Source: Escherichia phage LQ5
Strand: one strand, 5' to 3'
Length of the DNA: 64,000 nt
Sequence record: OR677401
Below are positions 8,491-49,561 of this stretch, piece after piece. Position 1 is the first letter of the stretch, and each line of letters opens with the position of its first letter. The notes below the pieces were generated by a model. The model was not told the DNA's origin and ran no database searches. It was given only the letters and a program-made list of their open reading frames with translations. The position numbers and the translations under genes are program-made.

Positions 8491-8674
8491 CCCTAAAAAT
8501 AAAGCGGAAATTATTCGACACTGGACTGAAACACGAGTAACTAAATGCCCTATAAAAAGTCAACACAACACCGATAAATGGTATATTGGTGAATATGTTG
8601 AGTATACTTTTATAGATAAAAATAAACGTAAACAGCATGTAGAAGAATATTGCTTAAAGGTGCAATGGTTATGA
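8462..8674 (+). CDS. hypothetical protein
   Basis: ORF 70 aa overlapping macro gene end. Confidence 0.45.
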   Translation: MKAHYPHPFDPKNKAEIIRHWTETRVTKCPIKSQHNTDKWYIGEYVEYTFIDKNKRKQHVEEYCLKVQWL

Positions 8675-8844
8675 GTCTGAGTAAAGAACAGAAAGATAAA
8701 TTGTTTGAGCTTATCCATGAGCTTATGGAACTCAACATAGAATGTGAATTTGATAACTCTCTGGATTGGGATTGGAGAGGTGGTGAAGAGGATGAGTTTT
8801 CTAAAAAGGAAAATGAATTAATTGCTTATGTAAATAGTCTTTAA
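8671..8844 (+). CDS. hypothetical acidic protein
   Basis: ATGA overlap; 57 aa. Confidence 0.5.
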   Translation: MSLSKEQKDKLFELIHELMELNIECEFDNSLDWDWRGGEEDEFSKKENELIAYVNSL

Positions 8845-8853
8845 GAAGGTAAT

Positions 8854-9426
8854 ATGGCTCAACTTTATTTTCATTATGCGGCGATGAATTCCGGGAAAAC
8901 CGCTTCATTGCTAACGGCAGCTCATAACTACAAAGAACGTGGTATGGGCGTACTCCTTTTAAAGCCTGCGATAGACAATAGAGAATCAAGCCATAGCATT
9001 TCGTCTCGTATAGGGATTAGTCAAGAGGCTAATGCCGTGACTCCGGATATGGACCTATACGAGTTCTATCGTTGGGCTGAATCTCAAAAAGATATCCACT
9101 GCGTATTTGTGGATGAAGCACAGTTCTTAGAACCTGCACAGATAAAACAACTGGCAAAGATAGTAGACAATTATAATGTTCCGGTTATGTGCTATGGGCT
9201 AAGAACTGATTTTCAGGGTAAACTGTTTCCTGGCTCTGCTGAATTACTCGCTACGGCAGATAAACTCGTTGAGTACAAAGGTGTGTGCCATTGTGGCCGT
9301 AAAGCTACTATGACTGCTAGGGTCCAGGATGGTATCGCAATTAAGGACGGCGCCCAAGTTTCTATAGGTGGCAACGATTCTTACGTGTCATTGTGCAGGA
9401 AGCACTGGATAGAAATAACGAGTTGA
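8854..9426 (+). CDS. tk: thymidine kinase
   Basis: AAMNSGKTASLL P-loop and CHCGRKA zinc motif; collinear with T4 Tk. Confidence 0.95.
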   Translation: MAQLYFHYAAMNSGKTASLLTAAHNYKERGMGVLLLKPAIDNRESSHSISSRIGISQEANAVTPDMDLYEFYRWAESQKDIHCVFVDEAQFLEPAQIKQLAKIVDNYNVPVMCYGLRTDFQGKLFPGSAELLATADKLVEYKGVCHCGRKATMTARVQDGIAIKDGAQVSIGGNDSYVSLCRKHWIEITS

Positions 9427-9433
9427 GGGTATT

Positions 9434-9712
9434 ATGGACCTAAATTCAAAGATTTTAATTCTAGCGTTCGCTGTGGCTATTTCTTATATTGTTCTTTCGC
9501 CTATCATGGATGATGTGGCTTACAAAAGAGAGATAGAGGTTGTAGCAGCGACGTATAATGCTAATAATAAAGAATGTCCTAATAAAAATGGGATGGATTT
9601 AATTAAAGCGCATTATATGCTTTCCATTACCTCGCCTATACAGAGGAATTGGGTTGAATATAATTTTAACGACGTGTTCTATTCTTATTGTCGTAAGCTT
9701 AAAAAGCTATAA
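9434..9712 (+). CDS. hypothetical membrane protein
   Basis: N-terminal hydrophobic helix ILILAFAVAISYIVLSPI. Confidence 0.6.
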   Translation: MDLNSKILILAFAVAISYIVLSPIMDDVAYKREIEVVAATYNANNKECPNKNGMDLIKAHYMLSITSPIQRNWVEYNFNDVFYSYCRKLKKL

Positions 9713-9715
9713 ATA
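9708..9715 (+). promoter_or_regulatory. possible late promoter TATAAATA
   Basis: exact TATAAATA about 90 nt upstream of the rI-like gene. Confidence 0.35.
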
Positions 9716-9804
9716 ATAATACTAACCGTAGAGCTTTAGCTTTTGGTAATCGCTATCGGTTAAGGCCGAAAGGCAAATAGTATAAAACAACAAAGGACTT
9801 TTGT

Positions 9805-10098
9805 ATGGGTATTTTCCGTACAGCGGCTTGTATCCTTATGGCGGGATGTTTAAGCCCTACAGTTTCACTAGCAAATGGTGCCAATGATAAATTGATGGAT
9901 GCATTTGCTAGTAGTGCGATGCCTGTTTATGCGCAAATGAGTAGACCCAGCGTAAAGGCCTCCGAAGACTATTGGGCCTATGTTACGGCTTCCTGGAAGA
10001 TTTCAAGTTGTCGGACTATAGAAGCGTGTTCAATTGAAGGTCGGGCCATCGGAGAGCGTTATGTAAAACTAATGAAGGTGGAAGATGAAGTTCAATGA
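9805..10098 (+). CDS. rI: lysis-inhibition regulator RI-like (signal-anchored periplasmic protein)
   Basis: 97 aa, N-terminal signal; C-terminal CSIEGRAIGERYVKLMKVE resembles T4 RI as recalled; position next to tk. Confidence 0.5.
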   Translation: MGIFRTAACILMAGCLSPTVSLANGANDKLMDAFASSAMPVYAQMSRPSVKASEDYWAYVTASWKISSCRTIEACSIEGRAIGERYVKLMKVEDEVQ

Positions 10099-10468
10099 TT
10101 TCGTACCCAGTCGAGGGTCTGAAGTGGATTCTTATATTGGTTGGCTACTGGTTTCTTTAGCCTATTTTAAGTCAGCCCATTTAGAAACCAAAAGCTATGC
10201 AAGACACAAAGCGTATGACTTCTATTATGTAGAAGTTCAAGGACCGCTGGACCAATTTAGTGAGCAATATCTTGGATTCAGTGGCAAAGAATATAAAGCA
10301 TCATTACCGTCTGCTTCAGACTTGCCTAAGGACCCGGTAGATTTTCTTGACGAGCTTCTTAAAGCATCTGATAAAATCTATGATACCCTTCCTAAGGCCA
10401 TCCAGTCGACTTTGGACGATATCACTGGCGTCTTTTACCAGACTAAGTATTTGCTGACGTTAGAATAA
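10085..10468 (+). CDS. hypothetical protein
   Basis: ORF 127 aa followed by terminator. Confidence 0.6.
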   Translation: MKFNDFVPSRGSEVDSYIGWLLVSLAYFKSAHLETKSYARHKAYDFYYVEVQGPLDQFSEQYLGFSGKEYKASLPSASDLPKDPVDFLDELLKASDKIYDTLPKAIQSTLDDITGVFYQTKYLLTLE

Positions 10469-33411: not shown

Positions 33412-33774
33412 ATGATTGAAATTACTCTGAAACAACCTGAAGACTTCTTGAAAGTGAAAGAGACCCTAACTCGTATGGGTATCGCTAATAATAAAGAAAA
33501 GAAACTATATCAATCCTGCCACATTCTGCAAAAGCAAGGGCTATATTATATCGTCCACTTTAAAGAGATGTTACGTATGGATGGCCGCCAAGTTGATATC
33601 GATGGTGAAGACTATCAACGTCGAGATTCAATTGCCCAGCTTCTTAAGGAGTGGGGACTGATTGATATCGTAGACGACTCTGAGCTGTTCGAAATCACTA
33701 ATAATTTCCGTGTCATTTCCTTTAAGCAGAAAAATGACTGGGAACTACTGTCTAAATACACAATCGGTAATTAA
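33412..33774 (+). CDS. regA: translational repressor RegA
   Basis: 120 aa, position immediately upstream of gene 43, matches T4 RegA as recalled. Confidence 0.9.
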   Translation: MIEITLKQPEDFLKVKETLTRMGIANNKEKKLYQSCHILQKQGLYYIVHFKEMLRMDGRQVDIDGEDYQRRDSIAQLLKEWGLIDIVDDSELFEITNNFRVISFKQKNDWELLSKYTIGN

Positions 33775-33783
33775 ATTAAGCAA

Positions 33784-33806
33784 AGGGACTTCGGTCCCCT
33801 TTTTGG
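33784..33806 (+). terminator. rho-independent terminator
   Basis: gggac-ttcg-gtccc then T-tract. Confidence 0.8.
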
Positions 33807-33862
33807 AGTATAATAATTCATCAACAAACAAAAGACAATCACTCGTCTATAAAGGAAATGAA

Positions 33863-36574
33863 ATGCAAGAATTCTATTTGACAGTCGAACAAATCGGTGA
33901 TAATATTCTCGAACGTTACATCGATAAAAATGGTAACGAACGTAGTCGTGAAGTTCCATACAAGCCTACAATGTTTATGCATGCTAATCCAGAGCAAGCC
34001 GTAAAATACATTGATATCTATGGTAAGGGTTGTGTTAAGAAAGAATTCGACTCTATGCGTGATGCATCCCAATGGATGAAACGTATGGATGATATGGGCC
34101 TCGAAGCCCTGGGTATGGACGACTATAAATTAGCCTATTTGTCTGATACCTATCGTAAAGAAATCAAATATGATTCTTCTAAGATTCGTATTGCTAACTT
34201 CGACATCGAGGTAACATCTCCTGATGGATTCCCTGAACCAGCTCAGGCTAAACATCCTATCGATGCCATTACCCACTACGACTCGATTGACGATAAATTC
34301 TATGTATTCGACCTTTTAGTTTCGCCTTATGGTACTGTTGAAGAGTGGTCGATTAAAATCGCTGAGAAACTCCAAGACGAAGGTGGTGACGAAGTTCCAC
34401 AGGAAATCATTGACAAAATCGTTTATCTTCCGTTTAATTCTGAAGAAGAAATGATGCTTGAGTACTTGAATTTCTGGCAACAGAAAACTCCTGTGATTTT
34501 GACTGGATGGAACGTTGAGTCGTTTGACGTACCGTACGTTTATAACCGTCTGAAAAATCTGTTCGGTGAGAACACTGCTAAGCGATTAAGCCCACATCGT
34601 AAAACTCGTGTTAAAGTTATTGAGAACATGTACGGTGCTCGTGAAATCATTACATTGTTCGGTATCTCTGTTCTGGATTATATCGACCTCTATAAAAAAT
34701 TCAGCTTCACCAACCAGCCTTCTTATTCTCTGGATTATGTTTCTGAATATGAATTGAAAGTGGGTAAGTTGAAATATGATGGTCCAATCTCTAAGTTACG
34801 TGAGACGAACCACCAACGATATATTTCCTATAACATTATCGACGTATATCGTGTAGTGCAGATTGATATGAAGCGTCAGTTCATTCTTCTGAGTTTGGAC
34901 ATGGGTTATTATGCCAAGATGCAGATTCAGTCGGTGTTCAGTCCAATTAAGACTTGGGACGCTATTATCTTTAATAGCCTTAAAGAGCAAGGCAAGGTAA
35001 TTCCACAAGCTCGTTCACACGTGGTTCAACCTTATCCCGGTGCTTTCGTTAAGGAACCTATTCCTAACGCTTACAAATATGTAATGAGTTTCGACCTTAC
35101 ATCTCTGTACCCGAGTATCATTCGACAAGTGAATATAAGCCCAGAGACCATCGCAGGGACATTCGCTAACGCACCGATACATGAATATATTGCCGGAACA
35201 GCTCCGCGTCCTAGCGACGTCTACAGTTGCTCTCCTAACGGCATGATGTACTATAAAGACCGCGATGGTGTGATTCCTACAGAAATCACCAAGGTGTTCT
35301 TACAACGTAAAGAACATAAAGGTTATATGCTTGCAGCTCAACGTAATGGTGAGTTAATTAAAGAAGCATTAGAAAATCCTAATCTCTCGGTTGATAGTCC
35401 ACTGGATATCGATTATCGTTTTGACTTCTCTGACGAAATCAAAGCCAAGATTAAAACGCTGTCAGCACCTTCTTTAAGAGAAATGTTGTTCAGAGCTGAA
35501 CGTACCGAAGTTGCAGGTATGACTGCTCAGATTAACCGTAAGTTGCTTATCAACTCCCTTTATGGTGCACTTGGTAACGTATGGTTCCGTTATTACGACC
35601 TCAGGAACGCAACTGCAATCACATTGTTTGGTCAAATGGCCCTCCAATGGATTGAACGTAAGGTTAACGAATATCTGAATAGCGTGTGTAAGACTGAAAA
35701 CCAGAAGTTCGTGCTCTATGGTGATACTGACTCCATTTATGTTAAGGCGGATGCAATCATCAATAAAGTAGGCGAAGACAAATTCCGTGATACTAACCAC
35801 TGGGTTGACTTCTTAGATAAATTTGCACGTGAACGTATGGAACCGGCTATTGATGCAGGCTTCCGTGAGATGTGCGAGTACATGAACAACAAACAGCACT
35901 TGATGTTCATGGACCGAGAAGCTATCGCAGGTCCTCCACTTGGTTCTAAAGGTCTTGGTGGATTCTGGACAGGTAAGAAACGTTATGCACTGAACGTTTG
36001 GGACATGGAAGGTACTCGTTATGCCGAACCGCACTTGAAAATCATGGGTCTCGAAACCCAGAAATCAAGTACACCTAAAGCAGTTCAGAAAGCTCTGAAA
36101 GAATGTATCCGTCGTATGCTTCAGGAAGGCGAGGCCTCTTTGCAAGAATATTTCAAACAGTTTAATAAGGAATTTAACGAACTAAACTATGTAAGCATTG
36201 CAGCAGTATCCAGTGCTAACAACATCGAGAAATATAATGAAGGTGGATTCCCGGGTTCTAAATGTCCATACCACATCAAAGGTTGCTTAGCTTACATGCG
36301 TGCTTCTGCAGGTGATTTGACTATGCCTCGTATCGTTGATGGTGAAAAGGTATATGTACTGCCACTTAAAGAAGGCAACCCGTTTGGTGAAGCTTGTATG
36401 GCATGGCCGTCAGGTATTGAACTTCCGGTTCAGATTCGTGACCAAGTCCTCCGTTGGATGGACTACAACGTACTGTTCCAAAAGACCTTTATCAAACCTC
36501 TGACCGGTTTTACTGAGTCTGCTAAAATCGACTACGAGAAAAAAGCAACATTATTTGATATGTTCGACTTTTAA
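33863..36574 (+). CDS. 43: DNA polymerase gp43 (family B)
   Basis: exo motifs FDIEV, YNIIDV; pol motifs DLTSLYPS, YGDTDS; very close to RB69 gp43 as recalled; start trimmed to MQEFYLT. Confidence 0.97.
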   Translation: MQEFYLTVEQIGDNILERYIDKNGNERSREVPYKPTMFMHANPEQAVKYIDIYGKGCVKKEFDSMRDASQWMKRMDDMGLEALGMDDYKLAYLSDTYRKEIKYDSSKIRIANFDIEVTSPDGFPEPAQAKHPIDAITHYDSIDDKFYVFDLLVSPYGTVEEWSIKIAEKLQDEGGDEVPQEIIDKIVYLPFNSEEEMMLEYLNFWQQKTPVILTGWNVESFDVPYVYNRLKNLFGENTAKRLSPHRKTRVKVIENMYGAREIITLFGISVLDYIDLYKKFSFTNQPSYSLDYVSEYELKVGKLKYDGPISKLRETNHQRYISYNIIDVYRVVQIDMKRQFILLSLDMGYYAKMQIQSVFSPIKTWDAIIFNSLKEQGKVIPQARSHVVQPYPGAFVKEPIPNAYKYVMSFDLTSLYPSIIRQVNISPETIAGTFANAPIHEYIAGTAPRPSDVYSCSPNGMMYYKDRDGVIPTEITKVFLQRKEHKGYMLAAQRNGELIKEALENPNLSVDSPLDIDYRFDFSDEIKAKIKTLSAPSLREMLFRAERTEVAGMTAQINRKLLINSLYGALGNVWFRYYDLRNATAITLFGQMALQWIERKVNEYLNSVCKTENQKFVLYGDTDSIYVKADAIINKVGEDKFRDTNHWVDFLDKFARERMEPAIDAGFREMCEYMNNKQHLMFMDREAIAGPPLGSKGLGGFWTGKKRYALNVWDMEGTRYAEPHLKIMGLETQKSSTPKAVQKALKECIRRMLQEGEASLQEYFKQFNKEFNELNYVSIAAVSSANNIEKYNEGGFPGSKCPYHIKGCLAYMRASAGDLTMPRIVDGEKVYVLPLKEGNPFGEACMAWPSGIELPVQIRDQVLRWMDYNVLFQKTFIKPLTGFTESAKIDYEKKATLFDMFDF

Positions 36575-36576
36575 GT

Positions 36577-36606
36577 GTTTACATACCACAAGGAACGTGG
36601 TAGTAT
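36577..36606 (+). promoter_or_regulatory. T4-type early promoter
   Basis: GTTTAC ... TAGTAT then cctatcaac. Confidence 0.55.
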
Positions 36607-36636
36607 CCTTCCTATCAACTACATGAGGAAATTACA

Positions 36637-36873
36637 ATGGAAGCTTTAATCGTTAGTGCTGGTGTTTTAGGATTCGGTTCTCTGGTTATTATGTTCATCG
36701 GTTACTTTTTACCATGGATTCTGGCTCTTCTGCGAGGCACTCGTAGTAATGTCGGAATTTTCTTCCTTAATCTCCTGTTAGGCTGGACGATGATTGGTTG
36801 GGTAGTGGCTTTAATCTGGGCTATCGTCGCTGAACGTAAATCAAACGCACAAATCATTATTGTTAAGCAATGA
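36637..36873 (+). CDS. imm: superinfection-immunity (Imm)-like small membrane protein
   Basis: two TM helices with GIFFLNLLLGWTMIGWVVALIWAI; position between genes 43 and 42 as for T4 imm. Confidence 0.4.
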   Translation: MEALIVSAGVLGFGSLVIMFIGYFLPWILALLRGTRSNVGIFFLNLLLGWTMIGWVVALIWAIVAERKSNAQIIIVKQ

Positions 36874-37007
36874 AAATAATTATTTTATTTCTTATAATGA
36901 CTGCCTTTACCATTTATTGGGCAGTGGCAATTCCGCCAATGATTCCGACACTAATCATCGGATGGATTATTCTTATAGCACAAATTAAGTATAACTGTTT
37001 TAATTGA
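36870..37007 (+). CDS. hydrophobic micro-protein (45 aa)
   Basis: ATGA-coupled; single TM; not in ORF track (below 60 aa). Confidence 0.35.
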   Translation: MKIIILFLIMTAFTIYWAVAIPPMIPTLIIGWIILIAQIKYNCFN

Positions 37008-37014
37008 GGATATT

Positions 37015-37515
37015 ATGAAAAAGTTAATTATCGCAATGAGTATGCTCCTATCAGGTTGTGCGGTCCAATATGGTGATGCAGTTTCGGCTGATGAAGTTGG
37101 TAAAGCTCGTATCGCAGCTGAACAGAAACAATTCGATGGCGAAATGAAATTCCGTGCAGGTTCTGGACTTGTGTACACCCGAGCCAATAATCAATGTGGT
37201 AATAACTGTGCAAAATATGCTCAAAGGGAAATCGAATTCCAACGTGAACAAGAGTCTAAGCGTGAAGCGGTACTAGCCAAACACCAGGCAGAAATGAAGC
37301 GTCAAGATGATTTGTACAAAAAGCAGAAACTGTATGCGATGTGCGTAAACCATATCAATCTACAGATTTCCATCCACGAGGCTCGTTATTACGAAATGCT
37401 CGAAACCGAGAGCTTCGGTAAAGCTCGTGATTATAAGAAACAAATCGATAAGCTCAAGACCAAAGCACCGGCGGCAATAAAACAGTGTATTGAAATCGGT
37501 AAAGATAAGATTTAA
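37015..37515 (+). CDS. lipoprotein
   Basis: lipobox-like LLSGC after signal MKKLIIAMSM. Confidence 0.6.
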   Translation: MKKLIIAMSMLLSGCAVQYGDAVSADEVGKARIAAEQKQFDGEMKFRAGSGLVYTRANNQCGNNCAKYAQREIEFQREQESKREAVLAKHQAEMKRQDDLYKKQKLYAMCVNHINLQISIHEARYYEMLETESFGKARDYKKQIDKLKTKAPAAIKQCIEIGKDKI

Positions 37516-37575
37516 GCAATACCAATTTATTAAAAATAGTGTATAATGTACCTACATTCACTTGAGGAACAGATA

Positions 37576-39249
37576 ATGAAAAAGGTTGTTATTTTAGGCG
37601 CGGGTCTTGGCTCACGGTTGTATCCAATTACCAACGAAATCCCGAAGGTACTGGTTAACTACAAACAACATACTGTATTAAAACATTTGTATGATTTGTA
37701 TAGTAATCAATCAGATGAAATTATTCTGGTTATTCACAGCAAATTTAACGACCTCGTTAAAGGCTATATTAAATCCATTAACATGATTAATAGTGATAAG
37801 CCCAAATTCACTATTCGTAACGTTGATGTTGCCAATGGTTCGGCTCATGCTATCGATTGCATTGCCGAAGATATCATTGGGCACAATGTCTTGTTTAACT
37901 GGTGTGATATTATTCCTGAAGGTCATAAAGTTGAGTGGGATAACGACTACTGTTATACCTATGGGACTGACTGTCGTTTTACATTTGAAGAACCGTACTT
38001 GCGTGAAATTGGTACCGGTGGTGGTGTGGTTGGTTTGTATCAGGTTGCTAATTGGACAGGCTTCAACCGTTCTAATTATGGCGAAGACCTTGCTGATAAC
38101 CTGGATTCGATGGTCCATTTGACCGAACGTAAGCTGGACTTTGTAGTTGATGTCGGTGACAAATTGAAACTGGCTAAGGCCCATGAAGATTCTGAAATTA
38201 ACCGTGAATTTAATAAATTAGAGTTCACTGAGAATCTAGCTATTAAAGTACCTACAAACGAATTAGGTAAAGAAATCCAATCTAAAGAAATCAATTGGTA
38301 CAATTCTATTGATTCTGAATTCGTTCCTAGCATTGTAGACTTTGCTCCAGGTGAATTCATTAAAATGGAACGTATCTTTGGTCGAACCATGGCAGATGCC
38401 TACCGGTTTATGTCTAAAGAAACTAAAGTCCTAATGGTTTATAAGGTTATTAGTGCATTACGTTCGTTCGGTGGAACTATCGATAATCCGTCCGATGAGC
38501 AATGGTATTCTGATGTTAAGAAAGAAGTATTGGACAAGGTCCTTATTCGTAATGCTTCTATTGCCGGATTGATTGAAGGCTTTGCTCCACAGGGTATTAC
38601 CCATGTTAACGACTTCAAGGTAGGCGACCCAGAAAAACTTCTTCGTCACGCCTTAGAAATTCTGTCTGAACATAAAGAACCGTACCAACTTATTCATGGC
38701 GACCCGCACTACAGTAATATTATGTTGTCGGACGAAGGTAATATTAAAATCATCGACCCACGTGGTTATTTTGGTAATAGTTCTAAAGGCCCTGCGATTT
38801 ATGATGAAGCTAAGGTGCTTTATTCTATCGATGGTTATGACAAATTTAACTCTGACCCTCTATGGGGCGGATTAACTCGTAACGGAACTCGTGTATTCGT
38901 TGATATTGAAAAGGTTATGCCTTTAGATGATATTCCGATGTGTACATTTAAGCACAAGCTCTGGATTGCCGTTATTTGGATGGCATTGGCAGGTTACTTT
39001 AAAAATAACCCTCTGAAAGCTCTGGGCGCTTATTACAATGGGCTATATCAACTGAGTGTGCTGCTGAAGCGGCATCCTCGTAAGCGTAAGCTTATCACAG
39101 GTGAATTCGTTGATGAAGTTCGCGACCCTATCACGGCTCAAATTATCACTCGTTGTCCTGATAAGTGGGTTTTGCTTGACCAAGAAACTGGTGTAAAATA
39201 TAAACCTACAGGTTCTACCGAACTCCACAAACAATGGAAGAAAATTTAA
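37576..39249 (+). CDS. bifunctional nucleotidyltransferase / kinase (predicted sugar-1-phosphate nucleotidyltransferase fused to APH/choline-kinase-like kinase)
   Basis: N-terminus ILGAGLGSRLYPITNEIPKVL matches the NTP-transferase glycine loop; C-terminus LIHGDPHYSNIML ... IIDPRGY matches the HGD..N / D-x-x-G kinase catalytic and metal loops. Confidence 0.65.
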   Translation: MKKVVILGAGLGSRLYPITNEIPKVLVNYKQHTVLKHLYDLYSNQSDEIILVIHSKFNDLVKGYIKSINMINSDKPKFTIRNVDVANGSAHAIDCIAEDIIGHNVLFNWCDIIPEGHKVEWDNDYCYTYGTDCRFTFEEPYLREIGTGGGVVGLYQVANWTGFNRSNYGEDLADNLDSMVHLTERKLDFVVDVGDKLKLAKAHEDSEINREFNKLEFTENLAIKVPTNELGKEIQSKEINWYNSIDSEFVPSIVDFAPGEFIKMERIFGRTMADAYRFMSKETKVLMVYKVISALRSFGGTIDNPSDEQWYSDVKKEVLDKVLIRNASIAGLIEGFAPQGITHVNDFKVGDPEKLLRHALEILSEHKEPYQLIHGDPHYSNIMLSDEGNIKIIDPRGYFGNSSKGPAIYDEAKVLYSIDGYDKFNSDPLWGGLTRNGTRVFVDIEKVMPLDDIPMCTFKHKLWIAVIWMALAGYFKNNPLKALGAYYNGLYQLSVLLKRHPRKRKLITGEFVDEVRDPITAQIITRCPDKWVLLDQETGVKYKPTGSTELHKQWKKI

Positions 39250-39608
39250 TGCATCTGTGTTTTGATATCGATAATACCATTACTCACTGGCAAGATGACC
39301 GTGATTACGAAAACTTTAAACCGGACACCGAAATGGTGTCCATGATTAATAAGCTTTATGATGAAGGGTACGAGATTACCTTGTTCACTGCCCGTGGTAT
39401 GACTTCATGCGGCCCGGGTCGAATCTTGGTTGAAGTAGTTCCTGCATTAGTTAAGAACCTTGAAAAGATTGGATTGAAATATCACAATCTGCTTACACAT
39501 AAGCCGAGTTATACTTTTATCATCGATGACCGAGCAATCCGTCCTGACCACTTTAAAGAAATGGTTCGTGAAGGAACTCTTGAAACCTATAAGGCATATC
39601 ATCCGTGA
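39234..39608 (+). CDS. HAD-superfamily phosphatase
   Basis: motif I CFDIDNTIT (DxDxT), motif IV FIIDD; alternative start at 39249. Confidence 0.6.
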   Translation: MEENLMHLCFDIDNTITHWQDDRDYENFKPDTEMVSMINKLYDEGYEITLFTARGMTSCGPGRILVEVVPALVKNLEKIGLKYHNLLTHKPSYTFIIDDRAIRPDHFKEMVREGTLETYKAYHP

Positions 39609-40141
39609 AACCAAAAATCATTGTTATCGACGGCCCGGATAATTCCGGGAAGTCTACTTTAATTGAATCACTTTTATCTGATAAGAAATATCGTCTTATC
39701 GATTTCCCTAAAAAGATTAACGGCAAATGCATTTCATTAGGGACTGATAATGACAAGGCTTTAGTCGAGACGTTGTATAAGTTTTTAGACCCTAATTTTG
39801 TCTACATCTTAGACCGTGGGTATCCTAGTAATATTGTTTACTCTGGATTCCTTCGTGGTGAAATGGACCCTTATGTAGAATTAGCAGATTGGATTGATTT
39901 CAAAAAAGAATTCAATATCATTGAGATTATTTTAACCCGTAATCCATTAGATGAAGACTTTGAAGATGACCTTATTAAATTAACCAAAGATGAGTTCAAC
40001 CTAACTATCCAGCAATATGAAACATGTTTTGAAAACGTGTTTAAAATCTTAAATCACGACGGCCATAATAACTTGCTTAACGTCGATATGGTAGAATTAA
40101 AACGTCTGAATGAATATATTGAAAATAAGGTGAATAAATGA
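39605..40141 (+). CDS. P-loop (thymidylate-kinase-like) nucleotide kinase
   Basis: IVIDGPDNSGKSTL Walker A; LDRGY resembles the Tmk DRY motif. Confidence 0.6.
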   Translation: MKPKIIVIDGPDNSGKSTLIESLLSDKKYRLIDFPKKINGKCISLGTDNDKALVETLYKFLDPNFVYILDRGYPSNIVYSGFLRGEMDPYVELADWIDFKKEFNIIEIILTRNPLDEDFEDDLIKLTKDEFNLTIQQYETCFENVFKILNHDGHNNLLNVDMVELKRLNEYIENKVNK

Positions 40142-40836
40142 AACACATTACCGCTGTTAGTTTTGAAAACGCGTTTAAGCAAATGAACGAAGAAATCCTG
40201 GAAGCTCCACAGTTTGCAGTTGATTCTCGTATCGGCCGTTGTTATGAAATTGGTTCTGCTTCGGTAGAAGTACTGGATGCAAGCACCTATAAATTCACCG
40301 ACCCTCGTATTAATCGTATCAACTATGATTATGCCGAATCCTTTTGGAAGTTTATGATTTCTGGTGGTACTGACGCTGCTGAAGCATTTAAGGAATATCC
40401 TAATGTTGCTAAGTTCATTGATAAGCCGAAAAGTGACGTATTGCCTGCAAACTTCAACACTTTCTATGGACCTCGAATTGTGGCCCAACTCCCGGCCCTA
40501 CTTAAAGAGCTTAAAGAGAAGCCTAACTCAAGACGAGTTGTGTTCCAAATTCTCCAAGAACAAGACCAGGCCCTCCTTGATTCTGACGAATCCTTAGAAT
40601 ACCCATGTACCGATTCGGTGACATATTATATTCGTGATGGACGTCTGTATGCACATACTCATATGCGTTCACAGAACTGTGCTATCGTTATGCAGCTGGA
40701 TTTCTATCTGCAGGGTAAACTGATGGCCTTTATTGCTGAACAGTGTGGTGTTGGTCTGGGTACGTATTCCCATACTATGGTTAGTGCACACGTATTTGAA
40801 CGTGATTTTGACTACGTTCGAGGATTCCTGAAATGA
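40138..40836 (+). CDS. 42: thymidylate-synthase-family pyrimidine hydroxymethylase (dCMP hydroxymethylase-like, gp42 slot)
   Basis: catalytic EYPCTDS cysteine; MRSQNCAIVMQLD aligns by eye with T4 gp42 MRSNDVVFGFRND, Asp at the TS Asn specificity position. Confidence 0.65.
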   Translation: MKHITAVSFENAFKQMNEEILEAPQFAVDSRIGRCYEIGSASVEVLDASTYKFTDPRINRINYDYAESFWKFMISGGTDAAEAFKEYPNVAKFIDKPKSDVLPANFNTFYGPRIVAQLPALLKELKEKPNSRRVVFQILQEQDQALLDSDESLEYPCTDSVTYYIRDGRLYAHTHMRSQNCAIVMQLDFYLQGKLMAFIAEQCGVGLGTYSHTMVSAHVFERDFDYVRGFLK

Positions 40837-41726
40837 GTTTGTTTATCGTTCCTATTTTCAGTATGCGTAGTTACGAAACAGGTGAATATGCCGTCCTTAA
40901 GGACGGTAATTTTCAACTCCATTTAAACCGTGCTTGCCCAGGTGATTATCTGGCTTATCCTAGAAATTCGAGCGATATCAAAGAATGCATTGAATTATTT
41001 CCTGAACTGAATTTTGTACCGCTTTGGTATAAAGAAAATGCTTATGAAACTCGTAAACATTTTTGGTCTGAAAACGAGTTCGTTGTTGATTCGTTAATCG
41101 AATACTATGACTGCTCAGGATTGGTAACCGATATCACAGGTTATGATGGCACTCAGACTGTACAATTCAACTTTAACATTACAATGGACCCTGAAGTTCC
41201 TCGTTATTATATCGACGAGTTTATTGATACCGACGTGTCCTCAGTTGAACGTTCGATTTATACCACAGTCCTGAATCAATGTCAGAAAGACGTCCTGGTG
41301 TCACGAGGTGCGTCCTCTGATAAGATTTTTGTAGACCAAAAGGTAATTAATCCGGCAGTAATTGAGCGTTACTCTGAAGGCCTAGCGCCTATTAAAATTG
41401 ATGGTATTTTCCACCCATTCCGTATTTCGGATAAGTGTTATCAATTCGAAAGAGTTGTAGACCAAGCTGCGGCTGAAGGTGCTCGTCTTTATATCACCGA
41501 CCCGAATGATTCATTTAAGCGTGAAGACTATCGTCCTGATGTAGAGATTATTAAATTCAAACCGAGTAAGGTTGAATATTATCAGATTCTGAAATCAAGA
41601 CCTCATATCATTTATCATGAGAATCCCGGTTTAGTATTCCATCCTGGTCTGGCTGAATTCATTTATTTCGGTGCCCATATCCATTCTGAGCACGAAATGC
41701 CAAGTTATGAGGACGTGGTCCTTTAA
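40833..41726 (+). CDS. hypothetical protein in the beta-glucosyltransferase slot (candidate DNA sugar transferase)
   Basis: 297-aa ORF ATGA-coupled to hydroxymethylase; no recognisable T4 beta-gt similarity. Confidence 0.35.
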   Translation: MSLFIVPIFSMRSYETGEYAVLKDGNFQLHLNRACPGDYLAYPRNSSDIKECIELFPELNFVPLWYKENAYETRKHFWSENEFVVDSLIEYYDCSGLVTDITGYDGTQTVQFNFNITMDPEVPRYYIDEFIDTDVSSVERSIYTTVLNQCQKDVLVSRGASSDKIFVDQKVINPAVIERYSEGLAPIKIDGIFHPFRISDKCYQFERVVDQAAAEGARLYITDPNDSFKREDYRPDVEIIKFKPSKVEYYQILKSRPHIIYHENPGLVFHPGLAEFIYFGAHIHSEHEMPSYEDVVL

Positions 41727-41803
41727 CGCTGTAAATGTGAAGTGATATAATTACCCTATCTTAAAACGTGAGTAAAATATAATGATGCCTATGGAAAAAT
41801 ATA

Positions 41804-42976
41804 ATGTCTGATTTAAAATCCCGTTTGATTAAAGCTTCTACTTCTAAAATGACTGCCGACCTGACCAAATCTAAATTGTTTAATGGTCGTGACGAAGTTC
41901 CTACTCGTATCCCTATGCTGAATATTGCATTAGGCGGTGCGTTGAATGCAGGCTTACAATCAGGTTTGACAATCTTTGCTGCTCCATCTAAACACTTTAA
42001 AACGTTGTTTGGACTTACCATGGTTGCGGCATATATGAAGAAATATCCAGACGCAATTTGTTTGTTCTACGACTCTGAGTTTGGTGCTTCAGAATCTTAT
42101 TTCCGTTCGATGGGTGTTGATTTAGAACGTGTGGTTCATACACCAATCCAGTCAGTCGAACAGCTTAAAGTTGATATGACCAACCAATTAGAAGAAATTA
42201 CTCGTGGCGAAAAGGTTATTATCTTTATCGACTCTATCGGTAACACTGCTTCTAAGAAAGAAACCGAAGATGCTTTGAACGAGAAAGTTGTAGGTGATAT
42301 GACTCGTGCTAAATCACTGAAATCTCTGTTCCGTATCGTAACACCTTATCTGACCATCAAAGATATCCCTTGTGTAGCAATTAACCATACGGCTATGGAA
42401 ATTGGTGGAATGTACCCTAAAGAGATTATGGGTGGTGGTACTGGTATTCTGTACTCTGCTTCTACCGTGTTCTTTATCTCTAAACGTCAGGTTAAAGATG
42501 GTACTGAGCTCACTGGTTATGACTTCACACTGAAGGCCGAGAAATCTCGTACGGTTAAAGAGAAATCAACGTTCCCGATTACAGTGAACTTCGAAGGTGG
42601 TATCGACCCATTCAGTGGATTGCTTGAAATGGCTACTGATATCGGCTTTGTCGTGAAACCTAAAGCTGGTTGGTATAATCGTGCATTCCTTGACGAAACC
42701 ACAGGTGAAATGGTTCAAGAAGAAAAAGCATGGCGTGCTAAAGCTACCGATTGTGTCGAGTTCTGGGGACCGCTGTTTAAACATGCCCCGTTCCGTGAAG
42801 CAATCGAGAATAAGTATAAGCTCGGTGCAATTAATTCTATTAAAGAAGTTGACGATGCAGTGAACGACCTTATTAACTCTCGTGTCTCTAAGAACGTTGC
42901 TGTTAAATTAGGTGGTAATGCCCAAAGCGCCGCTGATATCGAAAACGATTTAGAAGAGATGGATTTAGATGACTGA
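41804..42976 (+). CDS. uvsX: recombinase UvsX (RecA-like)
   Basis: collinear with T4 UvsX as recalled (MSDLKSRLIKASTSK ... CLFYDSEFG ... ETEDALNEKVV.DMTRAK). Confidence 0.95.
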   Translation: MSDLKSRLIKASTSKMTADLTKSKLFNGRDEVPTRIPMLNIALGGALNAGLQSGLTIFAAPSKHFKTLFGLTMVAAYMKKYPDAICLFYDSEFGASESYFRSMGVDLERVVHTPIQSVEQLKVDMTNQLEEITRGEKVIIFIDSIGNTASKKETEDALNEKVVGDMTRAKSLKSLFRIVTPYLTIKDIPCVAINHTAMEIGGMYPKEIMGGGTGILYSASTVFFISKRQVKDGTELTGYDFTLKAEKSRTVKEKSTFPITVNFEGGIDPFSGLLEMATDIGFVVKPKAGWYNRAFLDETTGEMVQEEKAWRAKATDCVEFWGPLFKHAPFREAIENKYKLGAINSIKEVDDAVNDLINSRVSKNVAVKLGGNAQSAADIENDLEEMDLDD

Positions 42977-49039: not shown

Positions 49040-49561
49040 ATGGCATTTTTTAACGAATGTAGTGGTTTGATTTCTGGTGTTGATAAAGCTGAGGAAGCTT
49101 ATTTTAATGCTCTGATTCATGAAGATAAAGACCCTCTGCAGGTTATGCTTGATATGCAGAAATCATTACAGGTCCGTTTGGCTACTGAAAAATCTGAATT
49201 TAACTCTAACCCCGATGAACTGGCTACTGCAGGTCAAGTTGTCGATTGGCTTCGCAACCAGAAAGATTATATTGATGACGAATTCCGTGAACTGTTGACT
49301 TCTCTTGGTGGCATGAGCAATGGCGAAAAAGATGCATCTGCAGTATGGAAGCCTTGGAAAGCTCAACATGCTGAACGTCGTGAAACCCTGATTAACGATT
49401 TGTCTCCTGAAGACCAGCTCGAAATTAAATTCGAAATGATTGATATTCTGCACTTTGTTCTGAATATGTTCCAAGGTCTTGGACTGACTGCTGAAGAAAT
49501 CTTTAAACTGTATTACCTGAAAAATGCCGAGAACTTTGCTCGCCAGGACCGAGGTTATTAA
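49040..49561 (+). CDS. 56: dCTPase/dUTPase gp56 (MazG-like)
   Basis: collinear with T4 gp56 as recalled (DPLQVMLDMQ ... DDEFRELLTSLG ... EIFKLYYLKNAENFARQDRGY). Confidence 0.9.
   Translation: MAFFNECSGLISGVDKAEEAYFNALIHEDKDPLQVMLDMQKSLQVRLATEKSEFNSNPDELATAGQVVDWLRNQKDYIDDEFRELLTSLGGMSNGEKDASAVWKPWKAQHAERRETLINDLSPEDQLEIKFEMIDILHFVLNMFQGLGLTAEEIFKLYYLKNAENFARQDRGY

Follow-up and report, generated by a model that had tools for sequence, protein, structure and literature searches.

A phage HAD phosphatase and a thymidylate-kinase-fold protein as probable members of two different modules in a Dhakavirus arabinosyl-hydroxycytosine cluster

The window analysed here, 64,000 nucleotides of Escherichia phage LQ5 (sequence record OR677401), carries between DNA polymerase gene 43 and uvsX a run of five genes (37546-41726) that overlap successively by 16, 4, 4 and 4 nt. 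The second and third of these encode a capless HAD phosphatase and a P-loop kinase of the thymidylate kinase (Tmk) fold, both present as given in a preliminary description of this DNA, with the HAD and P-loop motifs that it had named. The run comprises an AfhE-like enzyme, an AfhF-like phosphatase, the Tmk-fold kinase, a thymidylate synthase (TS) homologue with the substitutions D169N and N177D, and a glycosyltransferase (GT) of the Aat type, all of them syntenic, which is the composition of the cluster for arabinosylated 5-hydroxycytosine (ara-5hoC). We hold, with a probability of roughly 0.6, that both open reading frames (ORFs) are parts of a Dhakavirus ara-5hoC cluster and act in two different modules of it. 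Their membership in a DNA-modification cluster, already suspected in the preliminary description, was borne out, as was the lack of such a pair in T4, where only imm.1, imm, 42, beta-gt and segA lie between 43 and uvsX. To judge from its sequence the window is that of a T4-like Dhakavirus: the megablast match to positions 37000-42000 was Escherichia phage QL01 (Dhakavirus; 98.6% identity, 100% coverage), 51 records, including WG01, Bp7, MX01 and IME08, spanned most of this query, and JS98 and JS10 turned up in the kinase protein search. The pathway itself is already known, having been described for orthologues in work published in 2025-2026 and extended explicitly to the Dhakaviruses, which Lee et al. 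(NAR 2026, PMC13326640) list, by comparative genomics only, among the genera with an ara-5hoC cluster. Our literature search found no nucleoside analysis of any Dhakavirus, and ara-5hoC in the phage of the window is predicted from its genes. Homology, motifs, fold, synteny and fusions were computed here; the activities of AfhE, AfhF, the synthase and gp1 on 5-hydroxy-dCMP (5hodCMP) come from the work of others on orthologues, and the substrate of the kinase is our inference from context.

To place the two proteins relative to each other, 63 IMG/VR loci were fetched with kinase-family patterns and then searched with the window proteins. The kinase gene directly followed the TS-GT pair in 15 distinct T4-like loci (RB69, Serratia, Yersinia, Pectobacterium and Acinetobacter types, the short contig L015, on which the TS is not covered, and Thanatos), and the Dhakavirus and Marfavirus-type layouts were the only ones in which it came directly after the HAD gene. 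In the window, as in each T4-like locus with an AfhE-like and a HAD gene, no other pathway gene came between the two and HAD lay downstream. In one locus (L019) the blocks TS-GT-kinase and arabinose-5-phosphate isomerase-AfhE-HAD were swapped as units. Together, the order in the 15 loci and this block swap indicate two modules: the HAD protein belongs with the AfhE-like enzyme in a module for UDP-arabinofuranose, and the kinase belongs to a separate base module. The earlier view that the phosphatase is coupled to the kinase does not survive this comparison, since synteny rules out a conserved pair and the two are not a functional unit. Of the suggestion that they perform kinase and phosphatase steps on the sugar donor, the half concerning the phosphatase is supported by its orthology to AfhF of phage HY126, and the half concerning the couple falls on the same synteny. 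Homologues were found by tblastn in 343 phage records for the kinase and 389 for the HAD protein, with the same record counts for both per enterobacterial and Acinetobacter host genus.

Table 1. Genes in and around the cluster, in the coordinates of the window.
Feature	Coordinates	Strand	Remarks
DNA polymerase gp43	33710-36574	+	
imm	36637-36873	+	
Small ORF	36897-37004		58% identity to RB69 gp54, annotated 'similar to T4 42-imm intercistronic region'
Lipoprotein-like ORF, 166 aa	37015-37515	+	Lipoprotein-type signal MKKLIIAMSMLLSGC; PHROG 1754, function unknown
AfhE-like bifunctional enzyme, 567 aa	37546-39249	+	NTP-transferase and APH-kinase domains
Capless HAD phosphatase, 124 aa	39234-39608	+	Very probable AfhF orthologue
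Thymidylate-kinase-fold P-loop kinase, 178 aa, GTG start	39605-40141	+	RB69 gp45 homologue
Thymidylate-synthase homologue, 232 aa	40138-40836	+	5-hydroxy-dCMP synthase signature
Putative first DNA arabinosyltransferase, 297 aa	40833-41726	+	RB69 gp46:47 and Thanatos TH1_063 orthologue; no Pfam family
uvsX, gene 40, gene 41	after 41726, in that order	+	
gp56-type dCTP pyrophosphatase	49040-49561	+	90% identity to RB69 gp56 over 173 aa

The identity of the modified base was read from the TS homologue. This protein matched the phage HY126 structures 9iqu, 9iqc and 9ir2 in the PDB (E about 1.5e-125), and it is 79% identical to RB69 gp48 and only 25% identical to T4 gp42. In ThyA numbering it has E143, C146, N169 and D177, as does RB69 gp48, and T4 gp42 has D143, D169 and D177 at these positions. 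T4 gp42, RB69 gp48 and M6 gp58 served as controls for the active-site comparison, and their residues agreed with the published ones. RB69 gp48 has been shown experimentally to be a flavin-associated 5-hydroxy-dCMP synthase, D169N is diagnostic for such synthases, and the DNA of RB69 and DLP3 carries arabosyl groups ether-linked to 5-hydroxycytosine (5hoC) (PMC13326640). Because of the N169/D177 signature, the matches to the HY126 structures and the low identity to T4 gp42, the base is very probably 5hoC rather than hydroxymethylcytosine, and the TS homologue is, by its active-site residues, a dCMP hydroxylase and not a dCMP hydroxymethylase. On the same residues, hydroxymethyl-dCMP was rejected as the modified nucleotide.

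The kinase, with the Walker A sequence GPDNSGKST and a match to PHROG 761 (2.8e-40), belongs to a small family: a HMMER search of 1.84 billion representatives returned 434 members at E<1e-3, 44 at E<1e-10 and 19 at E<1e-30. Six residues (G10, D12, K16, D70, R71 and D121) are invariant in the 44 members, and K36, S75, N76, Y79, R112, D122, N132 and Y138 are nearly so, while an FxDDLI motif occurs only in T4-like members and those closest to them. The protein is 38% identical to RB69 gp45 and 44% identical, over 141 aligned residues, to Thanatos TH1_064 (family HMM score 192 bits). Its fold is of the Tmk type. D12 and D70-R71 are conserved and an arginine-rich LID is not recognisable, the residues being matched to those of Tmk from established structures rather than by superposition; the carboxylate of the GPD motif and the DR motif appear similar to the contacts of thymidylate kinase with the deoxyribose 3'-OH and the phosphates. 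Homologues in RB69, DLP3 and RL38J1 have been labelled 'nucleotide kinase' (PMC13326640), the Thanatos paper (PMC12838424) leaves the kinase undiscussed, and the accessible literature, a scope that leaves out He et al. 2026 and Mahler et al. 2025, contains no demonstrated substrate for the family.

An analogy with the P-loop DNA kinases of thymidine hypermodification, drawn before this analysis, is contradicted by three comparisons. Neither the window kinase nor RB69 gp45 matches PF18748 (5-HMUDK), on which M6 gp54 scores 7.7e-18; hhalign of the kinase profile to M6 gp54 aligns only 31 residues of the P-loop; and M6 gp54 gives no match on the kinase-family HMM. The candidate role of a 5-hydroxymethyl-deoxyuridine (5-hmdU) DNA kinase was rejected on these grounds. 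None of the cluster proteins matches PF18724, and an amino-acid:DNA transferase partner (aGPT-Pplase/AADT) was not found among them.

Genome context outside the T4-like phages points instead to the nucleotide pool. We detected no homologue of AfhE, the HAD protein or the GT in the 45 more distant kinase loci. A TS-like gene stood in the flanks of 22 of the 45, often immediately downstream, and all but one of these 22 encode D at ThyA position 177, the mark of cytosine specificity; one of the 21, in L035, also has N169. The kinase homologues near these TS-like genes score 28-63 bits on the family HMM, compared with 16.6 for E. coli Tmk. Fusions of the kinase to a MazG/PRA-PH NTP pyrophosphatase (L035, L061) and to thymidylate synthase (P0067) were found, and in phage RL38J1, which uses hexoses and not arabinose, a thymidylate-kinase-like gene adjoins the 5hodCMP synthase gene (PMC13326640). 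The fusions to MazG and to TS, and the association with TS homologues specific for cytosine, favour a role of the kinase in the nucleotide pool, and we give even odds to its being a nucleotide kinase for 5hodCMP that works beside a T4-type gp1. The route would run from dCTP to dCMP, 5-X-dCMP and 5-X-dCDP: the gp56 dCTPase would remove dCTP and supply dCMP, the flavin-dependent TS homologue would hydroxylate dCMP to 5hodCMP, and the Tmk-fold kinase would turn 5hodCMP into the diphosphate, a step it would share with the T4-type gp1 deoxynucleoside monophosphate (dNMP) kinase. After replication, the 297-aa GT would arabinosylate 5hoC in the DNA. Of the preliminary description's proposal, nucleotide-level processing of hydroxymethyl-dCMP distinct from gp1, the nucleotide-level role is thus kept as the best reading for the kinase, and the substrate is replaced.

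The L035 locus (7566-10315; IMGVR_UViG_3300028840_000981) contains, side by side, the MazG/PRA-PH-kinase fusion, an S-adenosylmethionine-dependent methyltransferase and a TS homologue with E143, N169 and D177. These three genes might make 5-methoxycytosine or another O-alkylated 5hoC.

Several observations weigh against the nucleotide-pool assignment. A T4-type gp1 dNMP kinase is also present in the Dhakaviruses (QL01 gp145), RB69 gp1 converts 5hodCMP to 5hodCDP in vitro, and the synthase and gp1 suffice for 5hoC in E. coli DNA (PMC13326640), so that step could do without the Tmk-fold kinase. Morganella phage vB_MmoM_MP1 (NC_031020; L071 20500-21030) has an intact kinase (183 bits) between DNA polymerase and uvsX, and keeps it in that slot without synthase, GT, AfhE or HAD genes. 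The kinase scores below the curated models of its own fold, with 15.0 bits on PF02223 (Thymidylate_kin; cutoff 27) and 19 bits on TIGR00041 (threshold 83.25); on TIGR00017 (cmk) it reaches 20.7 bits (threshold 135.55). Other members are fused to domains with DNA-binding folds, either of the UDG superfamily (L038, L040, L050, L052, P0076) or HhH-GPD-like (P0041, P0044 and relatives), and the latter are the closest non-T4 members (E about 1e-20). A near relative of the window kinase, a kinase-HhH-like fusion on metagenome contig Ga0105249_10003448 (L074, 70-5081), is followed by a 349-aa ORF whose N-terminal P.FSMRSY motif is shared with the Aat-type GT, weakly at 17 bits. Finally, the pattern with which the distant loci were collected contained the GPDxxGK P-loop, so that this motif was selected by construction. 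In the 34 kb of MP1 examined, a dUTPase is annotated and no dCTPase. Further along the L074 contig, after the 349-aa ORF, come genes for a DNA polymerase of family A and for a methyltransferase; a TS gene would escape notice here, as the contig stops a little upstream of the fusion. A metagenome scan for kinase fusions yielded two loci only, and viral contigs searched with P0041 or the fusion alignment yielded none.

Some of these points would suit an ordinary, broad dNMP or dTMP kinase that raises nucleotide supply during infection and takes no specific part in cytosine modification, as would the Tmk fold: MP1 keeps the kinase without modification genes, and gp1 already serves 5hodCMP in RB69. 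Nevertheless, we consider such a role unlikely, because the gene lies inside an ara-5hoC cluster in every T4-like locus examined except MP1, has the same host-genus counts as the HAD gene, and is absent at this position from T4 and other hydroxymethylcytosine phages. Moreover, the distant homologues adjoin a cytosine-specific TS in 21 of 22 cases, and not an ordinary ThyA, and the curated Tmk and Cmk models both failed to recognise the protein.

It is also conceivable that the kinase acts at the GT step, either as a nucleobase kinase or accessory ATPase on 5hoC DNA, or as a kinase for arabinosylated 5hodCMP if the first arabinosylation precedes replication. The TS-GT-kinase order kept in 15 loci is consistent with this, as are the HhH-GPD-like fusions among the closest non-T4 relatives and the P.FSMRSY ORF that follows one of them. 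In addition, Lee et al. obtained no first arabinosylation from single GTs with UDP-arabinose and 5hoC DNA, and their data do not separate a nucleotide-level from a DNA-level first arabinosylation (PMC13326640). However, the kinase shows no homology to 5-HMUDK outside the P-loop, phenol-type O-glycosylation from a UDP-sugar requires no phosphorylated intermediate, the MazG and TS fusions indicate free nucleotides, and a GT is undetectable at most of the distant kinase-TS pairs. The acidity of the protein is a weak argument on the same side, pI being uninformative on DNA binding when the DNA glycosyltransferase is just as acidic. We find a role at the GT step improbable, and its sharpest form, in which the Tmk-fold kinase is the missing factor of the first arabinosylation, working on the arabinosylated nucleotide or with the GT on 5hoC DNA, quite doubtful. 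If that form were true, the nearest non-T4 relatives, with their HhH- and UDG-like fusions beside cytosine-specific TS, would mark a family of kinases that act on the nucleobase in cytosine hypermodification, a counterpart to 5-HMUDK in the thymidine pathways.

A third role for the kinase, in synthesis of the sugar donor (acting on arabinose, ribulose or a sugar phosphate, or regenerating UTP) and coupled with the HAD phosphatase with which it lies in the window, is very unlikely: the kinase gene adjoins HAD in no layouts but those of the Dhakavirus and Marfavirus types, the AfhE-like protein already brings a C1 kinase in its APH-like domain, AfhE and HAD homologues never stand alongside the distant kinase homologues, and RL38J1, a hexose user, has its thymidylate-kinase-like gene beside the 5hodCMP synthase (PMC13326640). 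Cyanophages tell against it as well, since their HAD homologues adjoin genes for carbohydrate kinases and nucleotidyltransferases, and no cyanophage is among the ten most frequent host genera of the kinase tblastn list, whereas the HAD list holds 27 Synechococcus records.

In the sugar-donor module, the AfhE-like protein has an NTP_transferase domain (2.5e-08, residues 13-110) and an APH domain (9.1e-06, residues 356-427), matches PHROG 4098 (5.8e-269), and is 41-44% identical to RB69 gp53 and gp52. According to the summary of He et al. (Nat Chem Biol 2026) in PMC13326640, AfhE phosphorylates arabinose-5-phosphate (Ara5P) to arabinose-1,5-bisphosphate, AfhF strips the 5-phosphate, and AfhE then forms UDP-arabinose. 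By analogy we infer for the AfhE-like protein the two reactions from Ara5P to arabinose-1,5-bisphosphate and from arabinose-1-phosphate and UTP to UDP-arabinofuranose. Since the phage has no isomerase of its own, Ara5P would be supplied by host KdsD/GutQ; the APH-like domain would phosphorylate it at C1, the HAD protein would take off the 5-phosphate to leave arabinofuranose-1-phosphate, and the nucleotidyltransferase domain would convert this to UDP-arabinofuranose.

In the HAD protein, motif I reads D11-I-D13-N-T15, with D11 and D13 invariant and T15 at least 90% conserved among 23 sequences, and the residues of motifs II-IV (T52, K90 and D98-D99) are all invariant in the homologue alignment. 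A phmmer search of the PDB returned 9iqw over residues 3-124 (E 2.8e-53), and the AF2 model (pLDDT 87.7), which has a Rossmann-like HAD core, found the same entry, 'phage HY126 encoded D-arabinose 1,5-diphosphate phosphatase AfhF', as its best Foldseek match (62% identity, TM 0.86). Lower Foldseek matches were 1xpj, heptose-1,7-bisphosphate phosphatase (GmhB), the T4 Pnkp phosphatase domain and HisB-N, and there is a sub-threshold relation to TIGR01689, a capsule-biosynthesis phosphatase subfamily. Because of its similarity to 9iqw and to RB69 gp51 (62% identity) and its position after the AfhE-like gene, we assign the protein with high confidence as an AfhF orthologue, a D-arabinose-1,5-bisphosphate phosphatase. 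That it is a nucleotide phosphatase instead, a 5'(3')-deoxyribonucleotidase or a polynucleotide 3'-phosphatase, as weak Pfam and PHROG matches to polynucleotide kinase 3'-phosphatase, the T4 Pnkp hit and the putative deoxyribonucleotidase matched in the AFDB by RB69 gp51 (Lee et al., PMC13326640) might suggest, is highly improbable given its identity to a crystallised and named AfhF, its constant place directly after the AfhE-like gene wherever both occur, and next-nearest relatives (TIGR01689, PDB 1xpj, heptose-1,7-bisphosphate phosphatase) that are sugar-phosphate enzymes. In the cyanomyoviruses S-SM2, P-SSM2, S-CAM3 and S-CAM1, HAD homologues (33-38% identity) have genes with carbohydrate kinase and nucleotidyltransferase annotations as neighbours, which suggests a related sugar-nucleotide module without a Tmk-fold kinase match.

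The 297-aa GT matches PHROG 3891 (2e-158) and is 64-69% identical to RB69 gp47 and gp46 and 51% identical to Thanatos TH1_063. The literature is in conflict over this protein: TH1_063 (L072 11460-12362) was reported as a UDP-xylose pyrophosphorylase (PMC12838424), and the RB69 and DLP3 orthologues were proposed from structure models as the first DNA arabinosyltransferase, a step that was not reconstituted (PMC13326640). The cluster in the window also differs from that of RB69. We found no homologue in window positions 1-64000 of the RB69 arabinose-5-phosphate isomerase gp55, the U32-like gp50 or the second glycosyltransferase gp3. From the absence of gp55 and gp3 homologues we predict dependence on host Ara5P (KdsD/GutQ) and a single arabinose per 5hoC. 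Between Dhakavirus and Mosigvirus the kinase and the AfhE-like protein are the most diverged components (38-44% identity, compared with 62-79% for HAD, TS and GT).

Three other T4-like loci have, in the interval from the polymerase gene to the cluster, relatives (29-46% identity) of the lipoprotein-like ORF that stands upstream of the cluster in the window. A promoter and terminator consensus scan of 36500-42000 gave no excess over shuffled sequences (18 vs 17.8 and 3 vs 3.6 sites), so boundaries of transcription units could not be drawn. RefSeq names for the Dhakavirus genes are misleading in view of the findings on HY126 and RB69, the HAD protein being called 'phosphoheptose isomerase' and the 5hodCMP synthase 'thymidylate synthase'.

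The ara-5hoC modification shields the DNA of T4-like phages from restriction enzymes, some CRISPR-Cas systems and DNA glycosylases. Public annotations need correcting, from 'phosphoheptose isomerase' to sugar-bisphosphate phosphatase and from 'thymidylate synthase' or 'dCMP hydroxymethylase' to dCMP hydroxylase. For the kinase, the comparative data provide a testable assignment by tying it to cytosine-specific TS and, in uncultured phages, to fusions with MazG, TS, UDG and HhH domains, associations that point to more cytosine-modification cassettes in metagenomes. The predicted mono-arabinosylation and KdsD/GutQ dependence bear on the choice of therapeutic phages and hosts.

Compared with known systems, the closest counterpart of the HAD protein is HY126 AfhF (PDB 9iqw), with equivalents in RB69 gp51 and DLP3 gp81. 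The two proteins agree in their capless HAD architecture and in being encoded immediately behind an AfhE-like gene, and the identity extends along the full length of the window protein; motif I is DIDNT in the window and DVDDC in HY126. The Mg2+-dependent AfhF-type activity is known only from the HY126 protein (cited in PMC13326640), whereas that of the window protein is assigned by homology. The kinase is nearest to RB69 gp45, DLP3 gp78 and Thanatos TH1_064 ('nucleotide kinase', PHROG 761), to which it is 38-44% identical and whose family HMM scores are 175-217 bits; all have in common the invariant motifs GPDxxGK[ST], FPK, DRxxxSNxxY, R112 and FxDDLI; the gene order is HAD-kinase-synthase in the Dhakavirus/Marfavirus-type phages, and in the others the kinase comes after the GT. 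From Tmk itself (PF02223, TIGR00041) it is set apart by 15-18% identity, by scores under both curated thresholds, by having a family-specific FxDDLI instead of an identifiable LID rich in arginine, and by its shorter length of 178 aa. Like the window kinase, 5-HMUDK (for example M6 gp54) is a small phage P-loop kinase in a base-hypermodification cluster, and HhH-fold fusions are known among relatives of both (PMC8989533 for 5-HMUDK). However, 5-HMUDK clusters need a synthase that produces 5-hmdU, whereas the synthase in the window is cytosine-specific (D177), and the window kinase is acidic (pI 4.8) where M6 gp54 has a pI of 8.7. With the T4 gp1 dNMP kinase, finally, the window kinase would share its type of reaction, the conversion of a modified dCMP to the diphosphate.

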